DNA of 10,891 nt from IMG/VR virus record IMGVR_UViG_2541047778_000014; one strand, written 5' to 3'. Below, one piece after another: positions 1,510 through 1,736 of this stretch (positions within the stretch are counted from its first letter, which is position 1; each line of letters starts with the position of its first letter). Under the pieces are notes generated by a model. It was not told the DNA's origin. It saw only the letters and a list, made by a program, of their open reading frames with translations, and made no database searches. The position numbers and the translations under genes are program-made. The DNA comes from a virus (taxonomy: Duplodnaviria > Heunggongvirae > Uroviricota > Caudoviricetes).

Positions 1510-1521
1510 TGTTGGCTCCGT

Positions 1522-1601
1522 TTATCCGTTAAAAGGGATATCAGTTAAGTTATCCCGTGTAGGGTATAAGCCATTGTCGAGACCACTCATTGAATGGTCT
1601 C
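1522..1601. repeat. cluster of short inverted repeats (TTATCC/GGGATA motifs and a 7-bp stem GAGACCA...TGGTCTC) in the 5' region of the packaging genes
   Basis: TTATCC at 1522..1527, GGGATA at 1535..1540 and TATCCC at 1551..1556; perfect 7-bp inverted repeat 1579..1585 / 1595..1601 with a 9-nt spacer. Candidate protein-binding or RNA-structure element; function unknown. Confidence 0.3.
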
Positions 1602-1736
1602 TGCAATAACCGATGTCTTTCCATCAGTCCGCCACCACAAAGAATCTTTTTTGCCATAAGGCAGGAGGTTCATCTTTCAGTGGCTGCCAGTGTTATTTCC
1701 CCACTTTCTGGCTTGGGTTGTTTCGCTGTACTGCCG

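Follow-up and report, generated by a model that had tools for sequence, protein, structure and literature searches.

A conserved hairpin upstream of the packaging genes in a CUS-3/P22-like prophage remnant is a candidate RNase III processing signal of the T7 type

RNase III sites that punctuate a polycistronic RNA are a textbook feature of phage T7. The substrates of this enzyme typically extend over two helical turns, roughly 20-22 bp (PMC1540722, PMC6212723), and carry a distal box that acts as a positive determinant, in which UA/UG is optimal and the requirement for the U·G pair is stringent (Pertzev and Nicholson, PMC1540722). About 11 bp are needed between the cut and the loop, and internal loops confine cleavage to one strand, leaving a protective 3' hairpin (PMC1540722). 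Among lambdoid phages, relatives of P22 have been described that carry no insert, or a different one, at the place of the pid moron (Cenens et al. 2013, PMC3573128). Here, we describe a conserved hairpin (hairpin 1) in a stretch of viral DNA of 10,891 nucleotides (IMG/VR record IMGVR_UViG_2541047778_000014, the whole of which is referred to as the window). It lies in the gap between a Rha gene and the DUF2560 gene that precedes the terminase genes, has the architecture of the T7 sites, and is proposed as a candidate processing signal of the late transcript. Its relatives were gathered as 92 loci (loci encoding the same DUF2560 protein plus phage records) and 120 further loci found by searching with the conserved 3' flank.

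The original prediction, made from the window alone, had pointed to a cluster of inverted repeats in this gap, all of which were found where it had placed them (Table 1). The perfect 7-bp repeat extends to a near-palindrome with 17-nt arms (1573-1589 and 1591-1607) of 82% complementarity. Judged on the window only, this repeat is not remarkable, since perfect 7-nt inverted repeats with loops of 3-12 nt occur 20 times in the window versus 7.3 +/- 3.4 times in dinucleotide shuffles; it is the comparison with relatives that shows it to be more than chance. On the minus strand, which is that of the late operon in the window, the repeat (1579-1601) makes up part of the upper stem of the 43-nt hairpin 1 (1611-1569). 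The predicted fold consists of a lower stem of 8 bp (1611-1604 with 1576-1569), a 2x2 internal loop (CA at 1603-1602 opposite GA at 1578-1577), and an upper stem of 10 bp (1601-1592 with 1588-1579) that ends in the loop AAU (1591-1589). Taken together, the two stems and the 2x2 loop give 20 stacked positions in a predicted, covariation-supported helix, which amounts to the two turns of an RNase III substrate. The minus-strand RNA from 1625 to 1500 folded at -43 kcal/mol with a z score of -6.2 relative to shuffles, versus -3.95 for the plus strand. Six sequence-divergent variants (that of the window and five others) all adopted the same succession of lower stem, internal loop, and upper stem at -20 to -27 kcal/mol, with lower stems of 7-8 bp and upper stems of 9-10 bp; the internal loop was 2x2 in five of them and 3x3 in the variant from Citrobacter.

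The two arms of hairpin 1 covary. Across 42 distinct variants that could be aligned unambiguously, 95.4% of the cells expected to pair did so, versus 31-53% when the partners were slid by 1-3 columns. Compensatory changes on both sides were seen in 8 of the 18 pairs, one of which appears as five standard pair types, and the covariation score (0.375 versus 0.228) was reached by none of 500 shuffles. Thus, the stem GAGACCA/UGGUCUC of the window is replaced in relatives by AAAGCCA/UGGCUUU, AAGCCCA/UGGGCUU, or, in a Citrobacter prophage, AAGCGUC/GGCGCUU; at the Citrobacter locus L092 the DUF2560 protein is just 45% identical, and the fold is kept with another stem sequence. Within the lineage of the window, a path from A-U over G·U to G-C is visible in GAGACC/GGUCUC, GAGGCC/GGUCUC, and GAGGCC/GGCCUC, the last one being that of P22. 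The structure is also tied to one strand. G·U cells outnumber A·C cells by 114 to 10, pairing reaches 95.4% on the sense strand versus 81.5% on the antisense, and every copy with a high score is on the strand of the late operon. A covariance model built from lambdoid hairpins only, with no T7 sequence (the lambdoid model), scored hairpin 1 at 70.1 bits on the minus strand versus 16.9 bits on the plus strand. Besides, of the 42 variants, 41 retain the CA/GA internal loop and 35 the U·G pair, which is replaced by C-G in six. As far as the alignment reveals, covarying arms with G·U on the sense strand only are the behavior of an RNA, whereas an operator would conserve the sequence of its half-sites. 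The repeats had been taken for protein-binding sites, and a protein very probably does recognize the main one, but not as a DNA site, given the covarying arms and the restriction of G·U to the sense strand.

Comparison with T7 gave the closest resemblance. When the T7 intergenic regions with RNase III sites were folded, they showed the same architecture as hairpin 1. The window (GAGACCAUUC-AAU-GAGUGGUCUC) and T7 R1.1 (AAGGUCAUUC-GCAA-GAGUGGCCUU) have the apex CAUUC/GAGUG in common, down to the placement of the U·G. In both, a U-A and a U·G pair lie below the closing C-G pair, forming a distal box (Table 1), and in hairpin 1 the CA/GA internal loop separates the upper from the lower stem. The T7 site R1 (GGUCAUC..GGUGGCC), in turn, resembles the type C copies of the lambdoid hairpin (GCCCAUC..GGUGGGC). 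Run over T7 positions 800-14000, the lambdoid model had R1.1 as its top match (E = 0.02) and also found R1.3, R1, R0.3, R0.5, and R4.7, while over positions 14001-39937 the top match was R18.5. In total, 7 of the 10 T7 sites were recovered, each in the intergenic gap just upstream of its namesake gene. The reverse search, with a model made from these seven T7 sites only (the T7 model) and scanned over 77 kb of lambdoid DNA, had its best matches at hairpin 1 loci (O157, E = 6e-4; L005, E = 0.005; P22, E = 0.006), and the sole place matched in the window was 1569-1611. Outside the window, the T7 model also matched a hairpin that immediately follows ral in the early-left operon (CUS-3 record, locus L216, 34369-34407; AAGGCUGCC..GGUGGCCUUUAUUUUUG, E = 0.002), which could be a terminator or another site of the RNase III type.

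Based on these comparisons, we estimate at roughly 0.6 the probability that hairpin 1 is a T7-type RNase III processing signal of the phage late transcript. Several points weigh against this. The T7 model scored the copy of the window weakly (13.3 bits, E of ca. 0.7, the plus strand being slightly better), the strong scores coming from its relatives, and the loop of hairpin 1 is a symmetric 2x2, versus larger asymmetric loops in the T7 sites. RNase III site features are not listed in the T7 records NC_001604 and V01146, so that the coordinates of the sites other than R1.1, which we take to be those of Dunn and Studier (1983), were checked by intergenic position and shared sequence only; the position of R1.1 was confirmed by its GCAA tetraloop. 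The six variants with C-G replacing the U·G include the common O157 type, and this very substitution lowers the reactivity of a minimal substrate (PMC1540722). Templated repair of a DNA quasi-palindrome can also yield compensatory change without any selection on RNA. Finally, the prophage copy is a remnant, and the element may therefore be idle in the window.

The element sits among mosaic junctions. Two swap spots recurred in the 92 loci (Table 1). At the first one, the inserts are genes of the gene-66/Gp49 type, other open reading frames (ORFs), or a terminator (according to the annotation of phiKp_30 and vB_EcoP-611R6). At the second one, P22-type phages carry ca. 640 bp with the antisense pid moron and a remnant of a Terminase_2 gene, which gives the order hairpin 1, hairpin 2 (see below), pid, Terminase_2 remnant, and orf80. 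In the window, neither the slot of gene 66 nor that of pid is filled. The junctions of the gap hold differing inserts, or none, between conserved flanks, which is what characterizes the insertion of morons and accessory genes. In P22 (locus L218, 1950-2100; NC_002371, ca. 40750-40900), the remnant between pid and orf80 is the N-terminal part of a small terminase of the Terminase_2 type (LTDKQEMFC.EYLIDLNATQAAI), which suggests that the pid locus arrived with part of the packaging module of another phage. The stretch of phage P6 matching this remnant is annotated as “terminase small subunit.”

Upstream of hairpin 1, the conserved leader that we call segment A contains two short ORFs, starting at ATG 1673 (28 aa) and ATG 1657 (35 aa), both with poor ribosome-binding sites and with a length or frame that changes with each insertion variant. 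P22 orf25 overlaps this stretch and has its start in the loop of hairpin 1, while the frame of ATG 1657 is the N terminus of ST64T orf118. In ST64T-type loci (L111, L139 locus 1722-2078; window 1657-1549), orf118 is the gap ORF MAKKILCGGGLMERHRLLQRPFNEW... fused in-frame to the DUF2560 gene because the hairpin 2 segment has been deleted. The 28-aa and 35-aa ORFs, P22 orf25, and ST64T orf118 look like annotation artefacts to judge from these features and were treated as noncoding.

The distribution of the element is wide. Its conserved part, which runs from the 3' half of hairpin 1 over the linker and hairpin 2 to GGAUAAA, was present in 2,540 of 5,426 complete Escherichia coli genomes (ca. 47%), in up to five places per genome, and was never annotated. 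It is absent from lambda and from the K-12 prophages DLP12 and Qin, which makes the RNase III data sets of K-12 uninformative. The upstream neighbors vary (Rha, GIY-YIG, KilA-N-like, and other genes, or the lysis terminator alone). A second copy of the hairpin appeared in 55 of 91 related loci, 190-650 nt upstream and on the same strand, where it immediately follows the stop codon of the gene ahead of it and abuts segment A or another cassette on its other side. A scan of the whole CUS-3 genome with the lambdoid model returned one copy, at this locus, plus a remnant. The corresponding remnant in the window, the first nine bases of a second copy downstream of Rz, stands where relatives have a complete hairpin. 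From the positions of the second copies and of the remnant, it follows that, from Rz to the packaging genes, members of this hairpin family stand at the ends of the accessory cassettes. In O157-type loci (L215, that is O157 AR-0428, 3420-3475, and L033), the 9-nt CATTACAAA is found on both sides of the lysis-cassette terminator module, which looks like the outcome of an insertion of the lysis terminator into two hairpin copies or of recombination between them.

Such junctions raise the alternative that the element is a recombination joint at the DNA level only, with its complementarity kept by templated repair of a quasi-palindrome and a functionless RNA. Mosaic breakpoints do fall exactly at the edges of the hairpin (1610-1612, 1588/1589, and 1607) and after hairpin 2, the hairpin alleles travel with the upstream cassette, and CATTACAAA both flanks the terminator module in O157-type loci and persists as the remnant of the window. 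Moreover, boundary sequences are already an annotated concept in the CUS-3 record, although its authors did not mark the gap as one of them. However, templated repair should perfect the palindrome, yet the CA/GA loop and the U·G pair persist in most variants (41 and 35 of 42, respectively), and this preservation of internal loop and wobble argues against templated repair as the source of the covariation. The tolerance of G·U alone marks one strand, and a joint of DNA only would not account for the reciprocal and specific resemblance to the RNase III sites of T7. We therefore regard a joint without any RNA function as unlikely, while a role as a DNA joint and RNase III processing are compatible and not mutually exclusive. 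A version that couples RNA processing and mobility, in which each accessory gene would carry an RNase III-type 3' hairpin that also served as the joint for capture or exchange of morons such as pid, seems rather doubtful to us; its joints may work by short homology or, in loose analogy to attC, in a structure-specific manner.

The location near the terminase genes had led to the proposal of a pac or cos recognition site. Position only speaks for a pac or an accessory cos element serving the terminase just downstream, in that the small-terminase gene is found 0.3-1.3 kb downstream of the element whatever the context. It does recur upstream of terminase operons, but regardless of the terminase type. 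The small-terminase families found downstream were GP3_package (P22), CUS-3-type, Sf6_terminase, Phage_Nu1, Terminase_2 (in two lineages, one of them with an HNH gene), and DUF1441, accompanied by several types of large terminase. The pac site of P22 has been genetically defined as a 22-bp site inside gene 3 (PMC9611059), whereas the hairpin is at ca. 40310-40350 of the P22 record, with pid, orf80, and orf59c intervening before the start of gene 3 at 41461; lambda has no such element. Since at least six unrelated families of small terminase have this element upstream, in pac and cos phages alike, and P22 pac is inside gene 3, a terminase-specific packaging site was excluded, the element being neither coinherited with one family nor located at the mapped P22 pac. 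Any packaging role of this kind is extremely improbable.

The three GGATA/TATCC half-sites of the gap belong downstream of hairpin 1. Half-sites 2 and 3 of the plus-strand listing form hairpin 2, which is weak (about -8 kcal/mol, with a 6-bp stem), and the remaining one, read on the minus strand, is the GGAUAAA with which the element ends. Homology to phages with other downstream modules stops at this motif and is followed by CGGAGCC... or GGTATTCAAGCC... The half-sites had been described as overlapping the ribosome-binding region of the DUF2560 gene, a point that had to be corrected: GGATAAA (1527-1521) ends just ahead of the Shine-Dalgarno GGAG (1519-1516) with no overlap, the ATG following at 1509-1507. 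Hairpin 2 is deleted in loci L010, L092 (Citrobacter), and L111 and L139 (ST64T-type), and its U-run is replaced in L142, while P22 has kept the half-site and stem sequence with an entirely different 10-nt loop. By comparison of the loci, hairpin 2 and the third GGAUA site are part of the same conserved module of ca. 90 nt as hairpin 1, yet apparently dispensable in some phages; a weak terminator, a protein site, or an alternative pairing are candidate roles.

That none of the repeats is an intrinsic terminator, as had been suggested, agrees with the terminator scan, which found none on the minus strand of the gap. The reason given, that no U-tract follows, is right for hairpin 1 but not for hairpin 2, since the minus-strand GGGATA-N10-TATCCC (1556-1535) is followed by TTTT (1534-1531). 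A Rho-independent terminator was rejected for both, hairpin 1 lacking a U-run and hairpin 2 having a stem of 6 bp, a loop of 10 nt, and four U. A related possibility is that the element acts in the RNA independently of RNase III, as a barrier to 3' exonucleases or as an insulator or pause site shielding the terminase genes from accessory transcription, with hairpin 2 and its UUUU as a weak terminator that Q-modified polymerase would read through. In its favor, the element stands between a variable accessory slot and the packaging genes in every context, hairpin 1 is stable (-20 to -27 kcal/mol), and four U follow hairpin 2 on the sense strand. However, hairpin 1 is without the U-tract that termination would call for, hairpin 2 falls short of a terminator, is missing altogether in the ST64T-type and Citrobacter loci, and has lost its U-run in L142, and canonical terminators are used where needed (2451-2432 in the window). 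The distal-box match to the T7 sites would also remain without explanation, and we give this possibility only a small chance.

A site for a regulatory protein would concern mainly the GGATA/TATCC trio, either as an operator for Rha or another protein or as CsrA-type GGA sites next to the Shine-Dalgarno. The three sites are 14 nt apart, the last one adjoining the Shine-Dalgarno, and three of them within 35 nt were seen in 11 of 1,000 shuffles, for a motif picked after the fact; besides, P22 keeps the half-sites despite its entirely different 10-nt spacer. On the other side, no DNA-binding gene was consistently linked to the element among the related loci compared, Rha being present in only a subset of the loci that carry it and the neighbors of the others being quite different. 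Some phages that appear intact have all three sites deleted, and the arms of hairpin 1 covary instead of conserving their sequence. An operator for Rha is not borne out by this pattern, and a regulatory-protein site in general appears improbable.

Other candidates were discarded. No sigma-70 promoter was found in the gap on either strand, and a small RNA (sRNA) transcribed independently from a conserved sense promoter is unlikely, because the sequences upstream of the element differ completely between contexts. The prophage sRNAs AgvB, AsxR, and Pas of enterohemorrhagic and enteropathogenic E. coli (EHEC/EPEC) lie toward PR' and the holin gene in the late region and not at the junction studied here, and no link was found to an HE-PICI attachment site. 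No Rfam 15 family reached its gathering threshold for the element, the scores remaining at 16.8 bits versus a threshold of 42 for Proteo-phage-1, 22.7 versus 55 for STnc560, and 24.5 versus 59 for mir-458. STnc560 is a core-genome sRNA located between ydeI and ydeE whose match rests on a generic terminator and was dropped. We found no earlier description of the element in Rfam or in the open literature, its literal sequence appeared in no paper, and the BTP1 and P22 transcriptome paper contains nothing on the hairpin 1 locus.

Hairpin 1 is taken to be transcribed with the late operon, which depends on Q and runs on the minus strand. If it is indeed an RNase III processing signal, host RNase III would bind its helix of ca. 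20 bp in the late transcript. We infer that the enzyme would cut in or beside the internal loop, probably on its 3' side near 1578-1575, with consequences for the stability of both RNAs. The upstream lysis and accessory RNA would be left with a protective 3' hairpin, and the RNA of the packaging and head genes would be released as a molecule that has a stability and translation of its own. We take the short conserved flanks to serve as joints for the lambdoid exchange of cassettes between Rz and the packaging genes. For temperate lambdoid phages, we came across no report of a T7-like site within the late operon, and the absence of the element from lambda may explain why it was overlooked. If the proposal is right, P22-like and many Shiga toxin (Stx)/O157 prophages would gain a host-RNase-dependent step that splits lysis and accessory RNA from structural RNA, and a sequence unannotated in ca. 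47% of complete E. coli genomes would acquire a function. It would also provide a mechanistic handle on the expression and exchange of accessory genes such as pid, and dubious annotations of small ORFs (P22 orf25 and ST64T orf118) could be corrected.

The window is the remnant of a CUS-3/P22-like prophage. Positions 1200-2400 match Escherichia phage CUS-3, which is a Lederbergvirus similar to P22, at 100% identity. The window is collinear with CUS-3 positions 21562-28167, 28415-28639, and 38529-40207, a succession interrupted by an IS3-family element. This insertion sequence (7737-8950), with an orfA containing HTH_Tnp_1 (7737-8063) and an orfB containing rve (8060-8950), occupies the place of ca. 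10 kb of missing CUS-3 DNA (28.6-38.5 kb, comprising replication, immunity, and recombination genes), which identifies the prophage as a deletion remnant. The large-terminase ORF has 251 aa here versus ca. 471 aa in relatives; homology to CUS-3 ends at position 121 of the window (CUS-3 21562), and in the window the head and tail genes do not follow on from the large terminase. In the late operon, Q is followed by holin and endolysin, and the other genes are listed in Table 1. Two proteins with a Rha domain occur in this one prophage, Rha plus ANT (KilAC) in the nin region (5788-6510) and Rha plus ORF11CD3 in the gene adjoining the gap (1737-2348).

Table 1. Features of the window around the Rha-DUF2560 gap (coordinates in window positions)
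Feature	Position	Strand	Description or basis
Hairpin 1, candidate T7-type RNase III processing signal	1569-1611	-	Minimum free energy fold, covariation, covariance models
Distal-box pairs around the AAU loop	1586-1594	-	C1592-G1588, U1593-A1587, U1594·G1586; read from sequence
Perfect 7-bp inverted repeat	1579-1585 / 1595-1601		GAGACCA / TGGTCTC, 9-nt spacer
Single-stranded linker UAUACCCUACAC between hairpins 1 and 2	1557-1568	-	Nearly invariant across relatives
Hairpin 2	1531-1556	-	GGGAUA 1556-1551, 10-nt loop, UAUCCC 1540-1535, UUUU 1534-1531
Half-sites	1523-1527; 1536-1540; 1551-1555	+	TATCC; GGATA; TATCC
Third half-site GGAUAAA	1521-1527	-	Last conserved bases of the element
Segment A, conserved noncoding leader, 135 bp	1612-1746	-	Precedes gene-66/Gp49-type gene in relatives, which is absent here
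Swap spot 1	1610-1612		Inserts of 129-657 bp directly 5' of hairpin 1; BLAST breakpoints, 92 loci
Swap spot 2	1523-1535		Hairpin 2 to DUF2560 ribosome-binding site; recurrent BLAST breakpoints around 1523-1551, 92 loci
CATTACAAA, first nine bases (5' remnant) of second hairpin 1-family copy	2463-2471	-	Downstream of Rz, before terminator 2451-2432
Q	4439-4957	-	Followed by holin and endolysin
Rz	2625-3062	-	
Lysis-cassette intrinsic terminator	2451-2432	-	Terminator scan
Rha gene	1737-2348	-	Stop codon 1737-1739
Rha-DUF2560 gap	1510-1736		227 bp
DUF2560 gene, 80 aa	1267-1509	-	ATG 1509-1507; hkbM in CUS-3 record, orf80 in P22
Small terminase	824-1264	-	
Large terminase, truncated	72-827	-	ORF of 251 aa

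Several known systems share traits with this element. The late-region intrinsic terminators, such as that of the lysis cassette, are also stem-loops in the same transcript, but hairpin 1 has no U-tract, has a longer, interrupted stem with conserved unpaired bases, and was missed by the terminator scan. The boundary sequences bsq1-5 of CUS-3 are likewise short conserved noncoding stretches at module junctions of mosaic lambdoid genomes; none of them covers the gap, however, and hairpin 1 differs in having a covarying, strand-specific structure. The pid moron locus of P22 occupies the same intergenic region, between rha/orf25 and orf80, although pid is on the opposite strand, 3' of hairpin 2, and is absent from the window, and the hairpins are not described in PMC3573128. 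With the attC sites of integrons there is an analogy only: both are imperfect palindromes in which structure prevails over sequence, located at the 3' ends of cassettes and sometimes in tandem. Hairpin 1 has no dedicated recombinase linked to it, a flank identity of 95-100% suffices for homologous exchange, and the strand-specific G·U together with the match to T7 points to RNA. The T7 RNase III sites remain the closest parallel. In E. coli, both sets occur as hairpins between the cistrons of a polycistronic phage transcript, on its sense strand, with a lower stem, an internal loop, and an upper stem of 9-10 bp, and the covariance model of each finds the other set. The difference is that hairpin 1, as a candidate cleavage site, belongs to temperate lambdoid phages, with one or two copies per genome versus ten in T7, and that the lambdoid copies are tied to the boundaries of accessory-gene cassettes.

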